DNA of 64,000 nt from the NCBI GenBank assembly GCA_963674745.2, contig CAXXDV010000003.1, forward strand, positions 1,600,001 through 1,664,000, in the 5' to 3' direction. The position numbers and the translations under genes were made by a program. Below, one piece after another: positions 9,463-16,112 of this stretch; positions within the stretch are counted from its first letter, which is position 1, and every line of letters starts with the position of its first letter. Source of the DNA: Desulfosudaceae bacterium (GTDB lineage: Bacteria > Desulfobacterota > Desulfobacteria > Desulfobacterales > Desulfosudaceae). Below the pieces are notes generated by a model. The model was not told where the DNA came from. It ran no database searches and saw only the letters and a list, made by a program, of their open reading frames with translations.

Positions 9463-12000
9463 CTATGTTCCAACCTCACCGGCACATTCATCCAGCACCC
9501 AACGAACAGCAGCGGCCAGTTGATCCCGCCGAACCGGCTTCATCAAAAAGGCATTGATCCCCAGGGCCGTGGCCTTTTTTTCATCTATCTGCTGGTTGAA
9601 GCCCGTGCACAGAATAACGGGCAATCGGGGCCGGATTTTATGAATTTCGGCGATCAGCTGAACACCGGTCATTTCCGGCATGGTCATGTCGGTCACCATC
9701 AGGTCAAACGTATCCGGGGCGTTCCGAAAAGCTTCCAGGGCGAGCGGACTGCCAACGTGCGGCGTCACTTTATAACCGAAGCCGGTCAAGAGCGAATTCA
9801 ACATGTCAAGGATACTGAGCTCGTCGTCAACCAGGAGAATATGTTCCGTTCCCCTGTTGGCCGAACCAGGCTTGTCCGCCGGCATTGGAGCGCACTCTGG
9901 GCCTGCCGCCGCCACCGGAAGAAAAACATGAAATGTCGCCCCCTGCCCGGGTGTGCTGGACACATCGATCAGGCCTTCATGCTCTCTGACGATCCCATAA
10001 GAAACTGACAGCCCCAGGCCGGTGCCTTTACCGATTTCCTTGGTCGTATAAAAGGGATCAAAGATTTTCATCATAACCGCCGGGTCCATCCCTGTGCCCG
10101 TGTCCGAAACAGACAGGTCGATGTAGTTCCCGGGCGCTATCTCCACACTCGGCAGTCGATCCCCAACAAGCTCAATTTCATTAAGCCCGATCGCAATTAT
10201 GCCGACATCCGCCTCCATGGCGTGGTGAGCGTTCACGATCAGGTTCATCAGCACCTGATGGATTTGGCCGGGATTGGCCATCACCGGCCGGCAGGACGAA
10301 TCAATATCAGCCCTTATCTCTATTGAGGTGGGTATAGAATGCCGGGTCAGGTCCAGTACCTCACGGATGATGTCCTGTATTTTGACGGGTGTTTTGTCGC
10401 TCTGCCGCTGCCGGCTGAAGGCGAGAATCTGTTTGACCAGATCGCTTGCTCGAGAGGCACTGCCCAGAATGGCTCGGGCATATTTTTGTTGTAGACTGTC
10501 GCCGCGCGTTATTTCCATGAGCATCTCAGCGTAACCGACGATCGGTGACAGGACGTTGTTGAAGTCATGCGCAATGCCGCCGGCAAGTGTTCCGATGGAC
10601 TCCATTTTCTGGGCCTGCAGGAGCTGGGATTGGAGGCTGATATTTTCCATCTCGGCCCGGCGGCGGGCGGTGATGTCACGGAACGTCCAGATACGGCCGT
10701 AGTTTTGGCCGTCTTTGCCTACAACAGGCGCCGAATATCGCTCCAAAACAGTCCCGTCCTTCAGTGCGACTTCGTCCTGCAATGTCTCCTCCGGATGGTT
10801 GTAAAGAAAGGTAACCTGCGCCAGAAACGCTTCCGGGTCCTTTGTTGAATTCATAACATACTGGACCTGGGTCTGATCATCGTCATTGTCGGCGATATGT
10901 TGCGGGATTTTCCAGAGTTCAATGCTCCGTCGGTTTTGAAAGACCTTTTTCCCTCTGCCGTCAACCACCAAAAGGCCTTCAGTGGTGGTATTGGCCTGGG
11001 CCTCTAAAAGCGCGGCCTGCCGGCGCAACTCGTCTTCCGCCCGTTTCTGATCCGATATATCGCGGGCCACTGAATACGTCACCCCCTTTTCCGGCTTCGG
11101 GTGTGACACCCAACTGAGCCAGCGGTAGCTACCGTCCCGGCACATATACCGGTTAATGAAATTGATTACCCTTTCCCCTTTTTGAAGTTTCGACTCCACC
11201 ATGTCTATTGTCTTCATGACATCATCCGGATGGATAAATTCAAGAAACGGTTTTGACTGGAGCTCATCTTCAGTAAAACCGAGCGTTTCCGTAAAGGCCG
11301 GATTGATCCTTATAAATGTCGAGGTCCGGATATCGGCAATGCATAGCATATCGAGGGACATGGAGAACACCTGCTCGAATTCTTTTCGGGCAAGCTGAAA
11401 GTAGATCAGAATCATCCCGATTGCGACAATAATCTCAATAAAGGCCCCCAGCAGGTATCCCCATGGGGCAAACCACTCCACGGGCCTCAGGAAGGGGTAA
11501 TCGATCTTGTGAACCCCCCATATGATAAAAGCAATCCCGACAACGCTCGGAAGGATTCCGTCCACCGTTCTGTACCGGAGTATCATGATGCCGGTCCAGA
11601 TGAAAACCATCCCGATAAACAGATAATTGGGAAGGCTTAAGAAAAGCAGGGTGGTGTCCGTCATGCCGCAGGCAAAAATCCACATGCCAATGGCAACTGC
11701 AAGATACACCCATAGCCGGTGCATGGACCGGTTGATAAAAACAAAGGTCCCGTACATCAGAAACATTCCGCTCAAGAGGGTGGTGATCTGGTTGCTGATC
11801 AACAGATACCGGGAATAGTCGTCGGGCCCGGCTGTAATCAGCACCAGCATCAATACGAAACGCAGGGTATATATGCACCACCCTATGGACCAGATGAACA
11901 GGTATTTCTGCCTGTCAACCGTATACAGGTAGAAGAAGGTCAGGGTCAGGACGACCGTTCCTGACAGCGTTGCGACAACCGAAGGTATCAGCCAGTTCAT
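9463..12000 (-). CDS. Membrane hybrid sensor histidine kinase (7TM, 2xPAS, HisKA, HATPase, REC)
   Basis: AHDFNN, NLIVNA, DTGTG, FYTTK, GTGLGL and a C-terminal receiver (LVDDE, TDMTMP). Confidence 0.95.
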   Translation of the reverse strand: MNWLIPSVVATLSGTVVLTLTFFYLYTVDRQKYLFIWSIGWCIYTLRFVLMLVLITAGPDDYSRYLLISNQITTLLSGMFLMYGTFVFINRSMHRLWVYLAVAIGMWIFACGMTDTTLLFLSLPNYLFIGMVFIWTGIMILRYRTVDGILPSVVGIAFIIWGVHKIDYPFLRPVEWFAPWGYLLGAFIEIIVAIGMILIYFQLARKEFEQVFSMSLDMLCIADIRTSTFIRINPAFTETLGFTEDELQSKPFLEFIHPDDVMKTIDMVESKLQKGERVINFINRYMCRDGSYRWLSWVSHPKPEKGVTYSVARDISDQKRAEDELRRQAALLEAQANTTTEGLLVVDGRGKKVFQNRRSIELWKIPQHIADNDDDQTQVQYVMNSTKDPEAFLAQVTFLYNHPEETLQDEVALKDGTVLERYSAPVVGKDGQNYGRIWTFRDITARRRAEMENISLQSQLLQAQKMESIGTLAGGIAHDFNNVLSPIVGYAEMLMEITRGDSLQQKYARAILGSASRASDLVKQILAFSRQRQSDKTPVKIQDIIREVLDLTRHSIPTSIEIRADIDSSCRPVMANPGQIHQVLMNLIVNAHHAMEADVGIIAIGLNEIELVGDRLPSVEIAPGNYIDLSVSDTGTGMDPAVMMKIFDPFYTTKEIGKGTGLGLSVSYGIVREHEGLIDVSSTPGQGATFHVFLPVAAAGPECAPMPADKPGSANRGTEHILLVDDELSILDMLNSLLTGFGYKVTPHVGSPLALEAFRNAPDTFDLMVTDMTMPEMTGVQLIAEIHKIRPRLPVILCTGFNQQIDEKKATALGINAFLMKPVRRDQLAAAVRWVLDECAGEVGT

Positions 12001-12111
12001 GTGTAAACGGTTTCTCCTTGAAGAGTTTTGCCCGTGGTGAGCGGGAAAGGCTGAATTTTATAGTCTATTAATATAAATAATCTCACAATAATCTGTATGA
12101 AGCAAGCAATA

Positions 12112-12130
12112 GGGGTCGGACCAGGCTAAC
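12112..12130 (+). repeat. GGGGTCGGACCAGGCTAAC boundary motif (family A)
   Basis: Direct repeat of 9436-9454. Confidence 0.75.
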
Positions 12131-12279
12131 TTAGGGTATTCCGGTATTCCGGGGACATCCATGATAAGTAAAGTCAAGGGAAAAAAAGAGTTTTCCCATC
12201 CGCCAAAGAATACCCCCTGGTGGTTATGTTCCCGGTTCTCCGCGTAAGCTCTTTTTAATCTGTGTCTATTCGATCGACG

Positions 12280-12470
12280 GTCTGCCGCGACCAGACATCC
12301 ATTTGCTGTATCAGCCGCTTTATCCTTAATAAATAAAGCGGCGTCACAGAAGATTGAGTTTGGGTTAAAACCCGCCGGCCTCGAAACAGTATAAAAGATT
12401 GTATCTCGATCGGCTGTTCGATCACACAGTCCCCAAAACGCGAGGCCCGGCGGGAAAGCAACAGACGGAT
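12280..12470 (-). ncRNA. Candidate bridge RNA (seekRNA) of the IS110 element; ends approximate
   Basis: Two stem-associated loops. Segments at 12429-12434 and 12386-12393 match the target GGGGAC/ACAGTATA; segments at 12358-12362 and 12295-12302 match the donor junction CAAAC/ACATCCAT. Confidence 0.75.
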
Positions 12471-12490
12471 AAACCGTTATTTTATAAAAT

Positions 12491-13528
12491 CTATGCCGCT
12501 TCCTGTTCTTCTCCTTTCGGCAGTTCAAACGTCTTTTGTCCTTTATCAACCGCAAGCATGTAGGCGACAAGCTTTCGTGCTACCGCCAGCGTGGCCCGGT
12601 TTTTATTGCCTTTCTCGATCTCTCGGGCATGCACCTCGGCCAGTTGCGGGTTCCAGTAAGGTGCCAGTTTGGCCGCTTCGACCAATATCGTTTGTAAATG
12701 TTTGTTTCGCTTCTTCGATATTGGGCCTCTCATATTTTTGCCGGCCGACTCTCTTTGAGCGCTGCATAACCCGCAATAACTGACAGCTTTCCGGGCCGAT
12801 GAAAAACGGCCAGGATCTCCGATCTCCAGTGCCCAGGTCAGGGCCGTAACCTCTCCGACACCCCTGATGGACATCAGTCGATCCACCCGTTCTTTTATCT
12901 GCTCATTATTGCGGAGCACCTTTAACAGTTTTTTTTGGATATCGGTAAACATCTCATATCCGGATCGGGACATGCGCAGCAGGTTTATTACCGACTCGGG
13001 CACATCTTCCATGTTCTCCAGCAACTCACGAAAATATTTTTTCCGGTGCAGTCTGCTTTTGGTGTATTCCGCGCCGCATTCCATCAGGAGGCCGGATATT
13101 TTGTTTTGCATACGAACCGCCTCTCTGACGATATGATTGCGATAACGGAGAATGCGGCGCAACTCCCGCATATCCTCAGGCATCATGTAACACTCCGGCA
13201 ATAAATCGCACCGCAACAGATCGGCAATCATTCGCGCGTCTACTTTGTCGTTTTTCTTTTTGGATGCAGAAATAGCCTTGAGCATCTGGGGATGGGCGAC
13301 CTTCAACTCCTCAGCATACGGTTTTAAAAAATCATAAATCCATCCTGAAAACATCGTTGCTTCCATGGCGCCTGTCCACGGCCCTGGCAGACCATCTGCC
13401 CAGTGGGTTAAAGCGGAACGCGTAGCGGATATCACCCCTTGTCCGATAACGGTTCCGTCTTGTTGTTTAATGCAATAAGCGATAGTTTTCTTGTGAATGT
13501 CCAGTCCGATATAGTATGATTTTTTCAT
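12491..13528 (-). CDS. IS110-family DEDD transposase/recombinase
   Basis: YIGLDIHK, MEAT, KNDKVDARMIA, GVGEVTA, YCGLCSAQRESAG and AVARKL motifs. AGGAGG RBS precedes ATG 13528. Confidence 0.97.
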   Translation of the reverse strand: MKKSYYIGLDIHKKTIAYCIKQQDGTVIGQGVISATRSALTHWADGLPGPWTGAMEATMFSGWIYDFLKPYAEELKVAHPQMLKAISASKKKNDKVDARMIADLLRCDLLPECYMMPEDMRELRRILRYRNHIVREAVRMQNKISGLLMECGAEYTKSRLHRKKYFRELLENMEDVPESVINLLRMSRSGYEMFTDIQKKLLKVLRNNEQIKERVDRLMSIRGVGEVTALTWALEIGDPGRFSSARKAVSYCGLCSAQRESAGKNMRGPISKKRNKHLQTILVEAAKLAPYWNPQLAEVHAREIEKGNKNRATLAVARKLVAYMLAVDKGQKTFELPKGEEQEAA

Positions 13529-13704
13529 GGGAGACCTCCTTGTTTGTGGATTCAGATTCTGAGCAAGCCCAGTGCCTGTCTCAGCCGGTATTTTAAATAC
13601 CACATCTGCCACCGGGAGGTCTCCTCTCTCAATTAACTTACTTATGCATTCAAACAGTATACTGGTTTAAATCTATATACAGAGATCGCCAGACCGGAAT
13701 TCCA

Positions 13705-15345
13705 TTATTCTGCCTGCAGTTTGACTGCCGTTAACGAACAAGGCGGAAACGAAAAGGCATCAGGTGTTTTGCCTTGAGGGGAGATACTTAGCGGGATAAT
13801 GTTTTCACGGTTCTCCGGTGTGTTTTGCGCGAACGGATCATCATGGGTAAGTGACATTATTTCCTTGAAGACGAATTGACGGTCAGTGAAGCCGGCAAAA
13901 GAGATCCCGGTTTTGACATGTTGTTCCAGGTGCCGGTTGACAACAACCAGAGATATGTTTTTCCCGTCATCCGACATGGTCGCCCCGGCATCGAGTACCG
14001 GGATTGCACCTTCCTTTACCATGCCGATTTTTTTATTCATAACCGTGGGGCATGCCATGTCAAGCGCCAGGTGATTTTGGTAAGCGTTGCTGAAAATCAT
14101 CCAAAAGGCATGGTAACTGGTGGTTTTAACGATCCCCCGGTCGTCGGTCCTGATCAGCCCGAGGCAATTAATCAGCTGGGAGCAGTTCCCCATGCCCATT
14201 ATTTTCCCCAGCCGCATCATTGACAACAGGACGGATGCCACAAACAAAGAATCGCTCAAGGTCCAGTTTGTTTTTATCATCTGTGACATCTGATACCAGG
14301 CATTCCATTCATCCAGTGCTATCCTGACAGTTGTGTCAGGGCCAAGCGCGTCTTCAACGGACTGCCGGCATCGACGCAACATCATTTCAAATTCAGCGGG
14401 AGCGGCCTGCATGGCATAATGTACTTTTTCATTATGCCAGGGGGGCAGGGAGCGACCCAGAAGCGCCCGGGGATTTATAATATTAATGTTTGTCCACGGT
14501 GCGTAAATATGAACACTCAAATAATCGACATAGCCGTCAATCGCGCTTAAAAGCGTGGTGTTCCATTCCGCCGTATGACGGGTAACAAGGATATCCCGCC
14601 ACCCGGGGTCAATGCCGCTGGCGACCAGCCTGATACCCGGATCTTTCTGTTTCATGGCCCTGGCAAACTGCAGGTATCGCCGGGCGTAGCTGTCCGGGCG
14701 TTTTTCCCAGCCTGGAATATACCTGCCCCAGATTTCATTGGCGATCCCCCAGTATTTTACATTATACGGTTCGGGATTGACCTTTGCCCGCAGAGCGCCG
14801 AATGCCGTGTCTGAAGAACCGTTACAGTATTCTACCCAATTGGCGGCCTCTTCGGGTGTGCCGGTTCCATAATTGATGTTGATATACGGATCGGCGTTGA
14901 TTTTCCGGCAGAGGGCATTAAACTCATCCGTGCCGAATTGATTATGAACATAAGGGCCGGGCACGCCATATTTATTTCTGAAAAATCCATAGGGGATGAA
15001 TTTGCCCCAGAATTTATTGGGGTGCCCTCTTCTGTCTTCTGATTTTCCGACACCGTCCTGCCAATGGTATGTCTCGGCATAGTTCCCCCCCGGCCACCTG
15101 AGCACAGGTCCCGGCCCTTTGTCGGCATGTTGAAACAGCGGGATCACGGCCTGAAGAACATCTGCCCGGACGCCGCTCAAAAAAGAGTCATCGCAGTGCG
15201 GCAGGCTTTTGTATCGCTCCGAGGTTGTCCACAGGCCGTCATGAATGGCCTCACCGAGTTCCTCGATAAAATGGCCGAATATATTTCTGTCAATTTGATG
15301 CTGAATATTATTCTTGATTTTGATGTCAGCCACTGAATACCCCAC
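13705..15345 (-). CDS. abfA: GH51 alpha-L-arabinofuranosidase
   Basis: FGHFIEELG, RWPGGN, FGTDEF, WVEYCNG, WGIANE (acid/base) and ALDEWN (nucleophile). The start codon is uncertain. Confidence 0.88.
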   Translation of the reverse strand: MGYSVADIKIKNNIQHQIDRNIFGHFIEELGEAIHDGLWTTSERYKSLPHCDDSFLSGVRADVLQAVIPLFQHADKGPGPVLRWPGGNYAETYHWQDGVGKSEDRRGHPNKFWGKFIPYGFFRNKYGVPGPYVHNQFGTDEFNALCRKINADPYININYGTGTPEEAANWVEYCNGSSDTAFGALRAKVNPEPYNVKYWGIANEIWGRYIPGWEKRPDSYARRYLQFARAMKQKDPGIRLVASGIDPGWRDILVTRHTAEWNTTLLSAIDGYVDYLSVHIYAPWTNINIINPRALLGRSLPPWHNEKVHYAMQAAPAEFEMMLRRCRQSVEDALGPDTTVRIALDEWNAWYQMSQMIKTNWTLSDSLFVASVLLSMMRLGKIMGMGNCSQLINCLGLIRTDDRGIVKTTSYHAFWMIFSNAYQNHLALDMACPTVMNKKIGMVKEGAIPVLDAGATMSDDGKNISLVVVNRHLEQHVKTGISFAGFTDRQFVFKEIMSLTHDDPFAQNTPENRENIIPLSISPQGKTPDAFSFPPCSLTAVKLQAE

Positions 15346-15352
15346 GAATCTC

Positions 15353-15364
15353 GGGGACAGTATA
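15353..15364 (+). repeat. GGGGACAGTATA motif (family B), an empty IS110 target site
   Basis: Exact 12-bp match to the reconstituted IS insertion site; lies between two genes. Confidence 0.8.
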
Positions 15365-15380
15365 TCGATTTATTTGCAGC

Positions 15381-16112
15381 TTAAACCGCCCCGGTGTTAT
15401 TTTCGATTTCCTGCTTGAAGTAGGCATTCGCCAGTTGAAGGAAATCGTCACGTGACAGCAGCTCTTGTGAAACGCGGTTTAACACCTCGTCCGGAATGAC
15501 TTCATTCCGCCCGGCGAACCGCCCGGCCTCACGACAGCCTTCGTAGACAGGCTTCATCCTGTCCGGTTCGAGTGCATCGAAAATTTCCATCATCGGTCCG
15601 TGGGGCCTGAGAAGGGAGCCCAGGTACTGCCGGCAACCCAGCCGGACAAAAGCCTGAACATGCGCTACCAGCTCATCGAAGTGATGCATCTCGTGAAAAC
15701 CGCAGTTGGACAACAGCACCATCGAAGAGTTTTTGGTTCCCTCGCGGAACGGATGGGTACACTGACCGTCCTTGACTTCAATGAACGGCAGCGCCAGCGG
15801 AATGATCCGGTCCATCATGATTTTCATCTGGGCCGTCATGCCGCATACATAGAGCGGCGTAGCGAGAACCACCACATCCGCCTGTCGCAAAAGTTCGAGC
15901 ATACGCTGCATGTCATCCTTCTGCACGCATTCTCCGGGTGTCTTGAGCCAGCAGTTGAAACACCCGATGCAGGGATTGATTTTCATTCCCTGAAGATAGA
16001 CCAGGTCAACAGTTGCACCTGTTTCTTTTGCCCCCTCAATAAACGGTAGCAGCATACGGTCCGTATTGCTCAATTTCTTCCTGGGGCTGCCGTTGATCGC
16101 CAGAAGTTTCAT
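15381..16112 (-). CDS. Iron-sulfur flavoprotein / NADPH-dependent FMN reductase family
   Basis: INGSPRK, CIGCFNCW…C and ATPLY motifs. Confidence 0.88.
   Translation of the reverse strand: MKLLAINGSPRKKLSNTDRMLLPFIEGAKETGATVDLVYLQGMKINPCIGCFNCWLKTPGECVQKDDMQRMLELLRQADVVVLATPLYVCGMTAQMKIMMDRIIPLALPFIEVKDGQCTHPFREGTKNSSMVLLSNCGFHEMHHFDELVAHVQAFVRLGCRQYLGSLLRPHGPMMEIFDALEPDRMKPVYEGCREAGRFAGRNEVIPDEVLNRVSQELLSRDDFLQLANAYFKQEIENNTGAV

Follow-up and report, generated by a model that had tools for sequence, protein, structure and literature searches.

A conserved RNA downstream of an IS1111-type transposase gene is a predicted bridge/seekRNA whose target guides covary with the insertion site

Abstract

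A 1499-bp insertion sequence of a Desulfosudaceae bacterium, contained in the 64,000-nt stretch of DNA that we analyzed (the window), encodes a structured RNA in the non-coding tail downstream of its transposase gene. The structure of this RNA is conserved among homologous elements with compensatory changes, its two target guides read both strands of the insertion site, overlap at the core and covary with the target, and the donor guide AUGGAUGU covaries with the element's transposase-distal tip. We consider it likely that this is an IS1111-type element with its own bridge/seekRNA, in which a target arm and a donor region would guide the DEDD transposase. Judged by sequence and predicted structure, the RNA is of a kind already known; what is added here is a natural series of guide/target pairs and a corrected guide map, while the known picture is unchanged.

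Materials and methods

Homologs were collected by a scan of one genome per species, which yielded 79 loci, mostly in Desulfobacterota-type MAGs, with transposases 62–73% identical. Their ORFs were placed by tblastn, and the downstream and upstream regions were then aligned. Tips, flanks and RNA segments were retrieved with fuzzy anchors from 81 loci, i.e. the 79 loci, the window and the second copy of the element in the same genome; the proximal tip was recovered from 74, the distal tip from 55 and the RNA anchors from 70–74 of them. Kept outside the statistics were the window itself (L001), the second copy (L002), a remnant (L003) and loci without anchor or flank. The RNA alignment (A3) comprises 56 distinct RNAs and excludes L034, L046 and L069, which carry long insertions. 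The transposase tree is a quick tree and not a completed careful search.

Results

A cleanly delimited element with an identical second copy in the genome

The element occupies positions 12157–13655 on the minus strand (1499 bp with the core dinucleotide counted once), as delimited by its junctions, by an identical second copy and by the ends of its homologs, which are conserved. Its core dinucleotide is AC on the plus strand, corresponding to GT in the orientation of the element. The junctions read TTCCGGGG-AC/ATCCATG (12147–12163) and GCATTCAA-AC/AGTATAC (13646–13662). One target half, TTCCGGGG plus the core AC (plus strand, 12147–12156), adjoins the transposase-distal end, while the core AC plus the other half, AGTATAC (13654–13662), adjoins the transposase-proximal end; in transposase-gene orientation the target site is TATACT-GT-CCCCGGAA. 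Both halves are defined by junction and second copy. This copy is 100% identical and resides elsewhere in the same genome (G000:C1:2188855-2190385, identity spanning window positions 12139–13669). Identity ends a few bases from the predicted element ends, the flanks are again TTCCGGGGAC and ACAGTATA, and outside of the predicted ends the two loci have in common only the target words TTCCGG..TTCCGGGGAC and ACAGTATA.T..TTTA. The ends and junctions proposed in an initial annotation of this DNA, made from the sequence alone, are confirmed by the second copy. As two identical copies occupy look-alike sites, the element is probably active or was so recently, which also makes the description of the system as intact in that annotation plausible.

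Junctions of the homologs read GT in 66 of 67 cases at the proximal and in 44 of 47 cases at the distal end. The core could be GT or TGT, since a T precedes GT in donor and target alike. Of note, in the Malonomonas-like MAG of locus L076 the distal junction is GC rather than GT, the 5' target guide ends in ...GAGGC with a 9-nt match, and the other guide still carries GU, making L076 a possible natural core variant.

Both ends carry a subterminal inverted repeat that is conserved in the homologs. One arm, ATAAGTAA on the plus strand (12164–12171), lies 7 nt from the transposase-distal tip, and the other, TTACTTAT on the plus strand (13638–13645), 8 nt from the transposase-proximal tip. The repeat search returned none at a minimum length of 12, and the repeat appears at a minimum length of 8. 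With 8 perfect base pairs it lies at the low end of the 7–17 bp published for subterminal inverted repeats of IS1111 elements (PMC11208160). Downstream of the transposase gene the element has 333 nt of non-coding sequence, and upstream of it 127 nt.

On a circle junction, built in a script, the hexamer TTGACT (12172–12177, minus strand) would come together with TTGAAT (13653–13648) across a 17-nt spacer, and TTGAC is conserved in the homolog ends. We infer a putative promoter, with TTGACT as the -35-like half, which would be formed only on the circle junction; junction promoters have been reported in this IS110/IS1111-type family. Contigs from three DNA runs that match positions 11700–14100 comprised only repeat-collapsed unitigs, and none bridged the empty site or the circle junction. 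In DNA contig runs containing this genome, word depth at the distal end (12139–12197) was about 95–138 as compared to about 2–44 elsewhere, and partial contigs often run into unlike sequence, suggesting that many related elements in the sample have the distal end in common.

The element is inserted between ordinary chromosomal genes. Its neighbors, all on the minus strand, encode a hybrid PAS histidine kinase with a receiver domain (9463–12000), a protein with an alpha-L-arabinofuranosidase C-terminal domain (13705–15345) and an FMN reductase/flavodoxin-like protein (15381–16112).

The transposase is of the DEDD/IS110 type

The transposase gene (12491–13528, minus strand) encodes a protein of 345 aa that is assigned to the DEDD/IS110 type by matches to Pfam families PF01548 (DEDD_Tnp_IS110; 1.6e-20, 73.9 bits at a cut-off of 29) and PF02371 (Transposase_20; 2.9e-20, 72.9 bits at a cut-off of 21.3) and to two transposases of known structure, those of IS621 and ISCro4 (PDB; E about 7e-8 to 8e-8). 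Residues D10, E56, D94 and D97 align with D11, E60, D102 and D105 of IS621, whose roles as DEDD residues have been described (Hiraizumi et al. 2024, PMC11208158). The motifs IGLD, AMEAT and KND..DA are kept in most of 76 homologs (AMEAT in 73/76). In the region of the serine motif G--P----SG, the protein reads GLCSAQRESAG, in which S261 is followed by A and then G, and the form GL........SAG is present in 75/76 homologs. The nucleophile S241 of IS621 is one residue off in the HMMER alignment, where it stands opposite A262.

IS1111 elements are characterized by a longer non-coding region downstream of a transposase gene coding for 330–350 aa (PMC11187229). Based on subterminal repeats, long downstream tail and transposase size, the features used for this purpose in PMC11187229 and PMC11208160, the element is by sequence an IS1111-type member of the IS110 family. 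The placement in the IS110 family and IS1111 type with an RNA downstream of the transposase, already proposed in the initial annotation, is thereby supported by the Pfam matches, the repeats and the 333-nt tail.

The leader upstream of the transposase start codon contains a perfect 10-bp inverted repeat, GGAGACCTCC/GGAGGTCTCC (13530–13539 and 13615–13624), which covers the likely ribosome-binding site and of which the GGAAACCTCC part is kept in homologs. It probably serves translational control.

The tail encodes a structured RNA conserved with compensatory changes

As delimited by the closing helix P1, in which GCUUU (12459–12455) pairs with AGAGC (12252–12248), the predicted bridge/seek RNA spans positions 12248–12459 on the minus strand, in keeping with homolog conservation, helix covariation and folds. 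From 5' to 3', the conserved order begins with the closing helix, formed by GAUCUU and AAGAUC. It continues with an arm, in which the outer stem CCCGCCGGGCCUUGC/CGAGGCCGGCGGG carries an inner hairpin of variable sequence, and then with the single strand ...CCCAAACUCAAUCUUC, a second variable hairpin, the single strand CAGCAAAUGGAUGUCU, a small hairpin and the closing strand. When a hand-drawn structure of 36 pairs was laid on the 56 RNAs, 95.7% of the cells were paired as compared to 29–47% with the partners slid. Changes on both sides were found for 22/36 pairs, and none of 500 shuffles reached any of these measures. Taken together, the tail encodes a structured RNA that is conserved with compensatory changes.

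The outer stem of the target loop (helix 2) is built from the 5' strand CCCGCCGGGCCUCGC (12440–12454) and the 3' strand CGAGGCCGGCGGG (12371–12383), of which 12441–12454 and 12371–12383 form 13 pairs with one bulged C; 99.0% of its cells are paired and 5 pairs have changed on both sides. The enclosed inner hairpin (12396–12428), which includes GATCG/CGATC (12408–12412 with 12419–12423), is variable in sequence among the homologs. All 7 pairs of its helix 3 have changed on both sides, and such inner hairpins switch wholesale, e.g. UA in 26 and CG in 25 cases. Between the donor-guide strands lies a further hairpin (12306–12349; helices 4 and 5) with a 10-bp stem (12314–12323 with 12333–12342); one pair of helices 4 and 5, for instance, is UA 29, CG 25 and GC 2 times. 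A small hairpin, GGUC...GACC (12279–12292; helix 6), follows the donor guide, with 90% of its cells paired in a less reliable part of the alignment. Hairpin lengths differ by non-multiples of three, indicating an RNA and not a coding region.

The RNA strand also folds better than its shuffles, none of which was as good; z is -3.83 over 201 nt and -3.63 over 339 nt. The RNAalifold consensus, in which closing helix and last hairpin were absent and the donor strands were joined by invariant pairs, was replaced by the hand-drawn structure. No Rfam 15 family matched positions 11900–13900 at E values up to 1, and a promoter scan upstream of the RNA on the RNA strand did not find a sigma-70-like site; one terminator-like hairpin is present at 12197–12178.

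Outer stem, inner hairpin and 10-bp stem had been drawn in the initial annotation just where they are found, and the covariation that it suggested looking for in homologous copies and their flanks is present in helices and target guides. Its layout of two loops needs revision in one half: a target loop is indeed followed by a donor region, but the latter is a multi-branch junction with a long-range closing helix and not a simple second internal loop.

Both target guides covary with the flanks of the element

The initial annotation had pointed out four words in the tail as guides, and all four are present at the positions given there. This could in principle be a matter of chance, or of a relic internal copy of target and ends without any function as RNA, in particular as two of the four words are short. 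However, among 20,000 dinucleotide-preserving shuffles of the tail (333–334 nt) either 8-mer occurred 118 times, whereas both 8-mers together, and likewise all four words, occurred in none. As the structure in addition covaries, and the guides covary with the flanks in dozens of elements, we regard this explanation as extremely improbable.

The 3' target guide UAUACU-GU (12384–12393, minus strand) has the same sequence as flank plus core (13654–13661, minus strand). Comparison with the left flank in 55 unique pairs gave 5.58 identities of 8 for cognate as opposed to 3.25 for non-cognate combinations, a difference reached in 0/10,000 permutations, and the signal resides at positions -6 to -2 (0.69–0.87 vs 0.28–0.47). 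The word TATACTGT (12393–12386), by which this guide was first described, is in place and covaries with the elements' own left flanks. When 46 unique pairs were scored over the 6-nt guide, which precedes an invariant GU, 14 matched in 6/6 positions, 19 in 5/6 and 13 in 2–4 of 6. Several right flanks likewise fit the 5' guide poorly, indicating that guides and present flanks sometimes disagree.

The 5' target guide UUUUGGGGAC (12429–12438, minus strand) pairs with the transposase-sense strand GT-CCCCGGAA, comprising core and flank (12147–12156). Cognate right flanks gave 5.51 and non-cognate ones 4.28 matches of 8 (35 unique pairs, 0/10,000 permutations), with signal out to RT+7. Since UUUUGGGGAC and GTCCCCGGAA form ten pairs, eight Watson-Crick and two U·G, the guide is longer than the hexamer GGGGAC (12434–12429) originally assigned; this word is present and covaries, but the short geometry deduced from it does not hold, the guide comprising 8+2 nt. 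The base of the 5' guide opposite the core T, in 68 typed target loops, is A in 52 and U in 9 cases (GGGGUC), and absent in 7.

In an unbiased mutual-information scan, which combined each RNA column with each position of flanks and tips, the seven top pairs fell within the two target guides, the eighth being an inner-hairpin column. The top five connect LT-2 to LT-6 with RNA columns 79 to 75, and RT+4 to RT+7 are connected with columns 34 to 31. Thus, the loops do not remain the same in elements with different targets but change with them: the target guides read both strands of the site, overlap at the core and covary with the target.

Target-like sequences elsewhere

The idea that the target is a highly repeated sequence was abandoned, as the exact 12-mer occurs only twice unoccupied and tolerance of one mismatch gave 24 sites vs 23 for the reversed control, i.e. 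no enrichment. Of these unoccupied exact sites, which share the 12-nt sequence TATACTGTCCCC, one lies at window positions 15353–15364 (minus strand) and the other at G000:C3:1555408-1555419, inside a 32-nt near-palindrome, AATTCCGGGAACAGTATACTGTCCCCCGAATT. A Tn3-like or MITE end was considered as general target because GGGGTCGGACC is located 34 nt from the insertion, and was likewise rejected: this word occurs only 8 times in the genome and in 3/45 right and 0/66 left flanks of homologs, and the neighbors of the element are ordinary genes. It is found in the window at 12112–12122, 21450 and 25519 and at five other places of the genome, in some copies with similar following sequence, and the distance of 34 nt recurs at two homolog insertions.

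An intact empty copy of the target is present about 40 nt from the occupied one in the left flanks of L039, L071 and L072 and in the right flank of L022, which suggests that target-bearing units are arranged in tandem; L022 additionally has a second element copy 25 nt downstream. At L003 (G000:C3:1597739-1597807), 2.2 kb before the start of the window, an insert of 38 nt interrupts a target-like palindrome; its one end is the distal tip TATCATGGAT, and its other end resembles the proximal tip (TTCAAATC vs TTGAATGC). This insert could represent either a miniature derivative or a scar of excision.

Guides in the donor region

Evidence for donor guides is thinner, as the tips vary little. The 3' donor guide AUGGAU-GU (12294–12302, minus strand) is identical in sequence to the transposase-distal tip together with the core (12155–12162, minus strand). 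Tip position -4 is A in L010, L025, L029, L033 and L063, and in all five the RNA reads AUAGAUGU, while it reads AUGGAUGU where the tip has G. Typing of RNA and tip gave 36 combinations of ATGGAT with ATGGAT, 5 of ATAGAT with ATAGAT and 5 with a change in the DNA only (at -1 or -5). In the subset with full RNA alignment, tip position -4 and G12300 are G/G in 41 and A/A in 2 elements, and this is the best-scoring RNA column for tip -4. The donor guide AUGGAUGU hence covaries with the transposase-distal tip, and the word ATGGATGT (12302–12295) named for it at the outset stands, the G-to-A variants of the tip being matched in the RNA in 5/5 cases.

For the transposase-proximal tip, the most likely 5' donor guide is UCAA-UC (12352–12357, minus strand), which would pair with G(T)-TTGA (13648–13655) and place a U opposite the core T. 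Tip position +3 and C12356 form 51 G:C and 3 A:U combinations with none discordant, and C12356 is the best-scoring RNA column for tip +3. It is U in L048, L060 and L064, exactly those elements in which tip +3 is A; L010 and L074 also have U in this column, with the tip of both undefined. UCAAUC abuts a hairpin as GGGGAC does in the target arm, and its geometry is analogous to that of GGGGAC/GGGGUC. The +3 change corresponds to at least two events in the quick transposase tree, where L060 is surrounded by relatives with the unchanged base and the other elements branch deep. For each guide, covariation is confined to one position and corresponds to about 2–3 independent events in this tree. This assignment is the least secure step of our model.

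The initial annotation had placed this guide at CAAAC (12362–12358, minus strand), which matches the core plus 3 nt of the tip. The same system with CAAAC as guide of the transposase-proximal tip, and with the covariation of UCAAUC being incidental, has in its favor five unbroken Watson-Crick pairs with GT-TTG that include both core bases, where UCAAUC has U·T at the core, and the co-occurrence of TAAAC with the tip TTAAAT in L060. Yet, in 58 homologs with unchanged tip the word is CTAAC in 10, CACAC in 4 and CGAAC in 2 cases (16/58, or 18/58 when two with TAAAC are included), L048 and L064 conversely keep CAAAC although their tip has changed, and the CAAAC columns give no mutual-information signal. 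The 5-mer taken alone is within chance, being expected about once per three such tails. CAAAC is thus present as described but probably not a guide, and a system relying on it appears unlikely to us; between the two words, we judge UCAAUC to be roughly twice as probable as CAAAC. Six elements in which tip +2 has changed from T to A keep UCAAUC and have a mismatch under either assignment.

The donor region might also lack guides altogether. The first arm would then act alone as a seekRNA, the transposase would recognize the ends through the subterminal repeats, and the tip-like words would be scaffold. An 82-nt short RNA of ISEc11 with nothing but the target matches supported transposition, even better than the long form did (PMC11187229), so that a donor loop may be dispensable in the IS1111 group. 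The second region here is moreover nearly invariant, as a protein-binding scaffold would be, and invariant bases of the two donor strands, AUCU and GGAU, could form pairs between them. On the other hand, G12300 and C12356 change together with the matching tip bases and never alone, the tips are conserved well past the subterminal repeats, and donor-binding nucleotides have been predicted in the multi-loops of IS1111 RNAs (Durrant et al., PMC11208160). We therefore consider a role of the first arm alone rather improbable. Donor recognition in IS1111-type elements probably involves the RNA in addition to the subterminal repeats, and we retain the model with AUGGAUGU and UCAAUC as donor guides.

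Discussion

A model for the element and its RNA

In our model, the RNA of about 210 nt would be made from the tail behind the transposase gene and bound by the transposase, and a long-range helix would close it. Its target arm (about 84 nt) would form an internal loop with two guides. At core and right flank, the 5' strand UUUUGGGGAC would pair with the transposase-sense strand; at left flank and core, the 3' strand UAUACUGU would pair with the opposite strand. The donor region would be a multi-branch structure that presents two single strands around a variable hairpin: AUGGAUGU, which copies the transposase-distal tip plus core, and most likely UCAAUC, which would pair with the core and the first four bases of the transposase-proximal tip. 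By analogy with IS621 and ISEc11, the RNA-loaded DEDD transposase would synapse the circularized element with the target, and strands would be exchanged at the GT core.

Some bases next to the guides resemble the handshake of IS621. The invariant UU after UAUACUGU matches the two bases with which the transposase-proximal tip begins, and the C after AUGGAUGU matches the first flank base. These handshake-like bases follow the guides that copy the transposase-sense strand and match recombinant junctions. The 5' guides may touch the core through its G alone; in the donor guide, U stands opposite T. The handshake idea found no support by covariation, as UU is unchanged in the six elements with A at tip +2; since the bases are invariant and UU does not track tip +2, a resemblance to IS621 is all that can be stated.

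In the flank on the transposase-distal side, a tandem duplication of 8–13 nt lies about 3 nt from the junction in 10/45 unique right flanks, as compared to 4/67 left flanks and 1.3/45 in shuffles. The right flanks with such a duplication include those of L002, L017, L021, L043, L051, L067 and L073; in the window (12125–12156) CCGGAATA occurs twice, in the second copy CCGGAAAT does so, and in L067 a 7-nt remnant of the element end lies between the duplicated copies. These duplications could be footprints of RNA-guided partial (half-site) recombination.

It is tempting to combine handshake-like bases, contact to the core via G only and half-site footprints into a scheme in which the IS1111 branch works as a mirror image of IS621, but we regard this as doubtful. 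If it were true, the first strand exchanged would be the opposite one relative to the gene.

The element represents a cleanly delimited and, judging from its two copies, apparently active candidate for an RNA-guided recombinase from anaerobic Desulfobacterota-type bacteria. Its approximately 50 relatives with different guide/target pairs form a natural series that provides a useful data set for design, and this series shows which guide positions are read, i.e. 6+2 nt for one guide and, with G·U allowed, up to 8+2 nt for the other.

Comparison with known systems

RNA-guided target choice by IS1111 and IS110 elements was established in 2024 (Siddiquee et al., PMC11187229; Durrant et al., PMC11208160), and a bridge RNA at the right end has been predicted for 93% of IS1111 elements (Durrant et al., PMC11208160). 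In IS1111 elements the RNA lies downstream of the transposase, with the guide complementary to the top strand located 5' (PMC11187229). The seekRNAs of ISEc11, ISPa11, ISKpn4 and ISPst6 (PMC11187229) share with the present RNA the position in the long downstream non-coding region, a first arm of comparable size (82–96 nt in the published short forms, about 84 nt here) and a pair of short matches, one to each strand, with an overlap at the insertion point. The guide order, with the complement of the transposase-sense strand 5', is the same as well, provided that the published "top" strand is the gene-sense strand (PMC11187229). Shared are further the subterminal inverted repeats with terminal extensions of 7–8 nt and the absence of a duplication beyond the common core (PMC11187229). 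In contrast to these elements, target and ends are different here, the transposase belongs to a Desulfobacterota-centered branch, and the strands of the second region that match the tips covary with them, while the portions of the published seekRNA account considered here (PMC11187229) assign no donor role. The predicted bridge RNAs of ISCARN28, ISAzs32 and ISPa11 from the IS1111 group (Durrant et al. 2024, PMC11208160, Fig. 6 and Extended Data Fig. 10) were set beside the present RNA by description only, and a named close relative of the element may exist in ISfinder or in published supplements.

With IS621 the element has in common a recombinase composed of DEDD and Tnp domains, and an RNA in which a target region is followed by a donor region, with one guide per DNA strand and the core in both (PMC11208160, PMC11208158). 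In contrast, the RNA is encoded downstream of the gene rather than upstream as in IS621, the guide order is reversed relative to gene orientation, the donor region is not an internal loop but a multi-branch junction with a long closing helix, GT (or TGT) takes the place of CT as core, one donor guide seems to set U opposite the core T, and the similarity of the proteins is low (E 7e-8). Read on the plus strand of the window, the order of LTG, RTG and handshake guide of IS621 (PMC11208158) is mirrored as left guide, right guide and two donor-matching bases.
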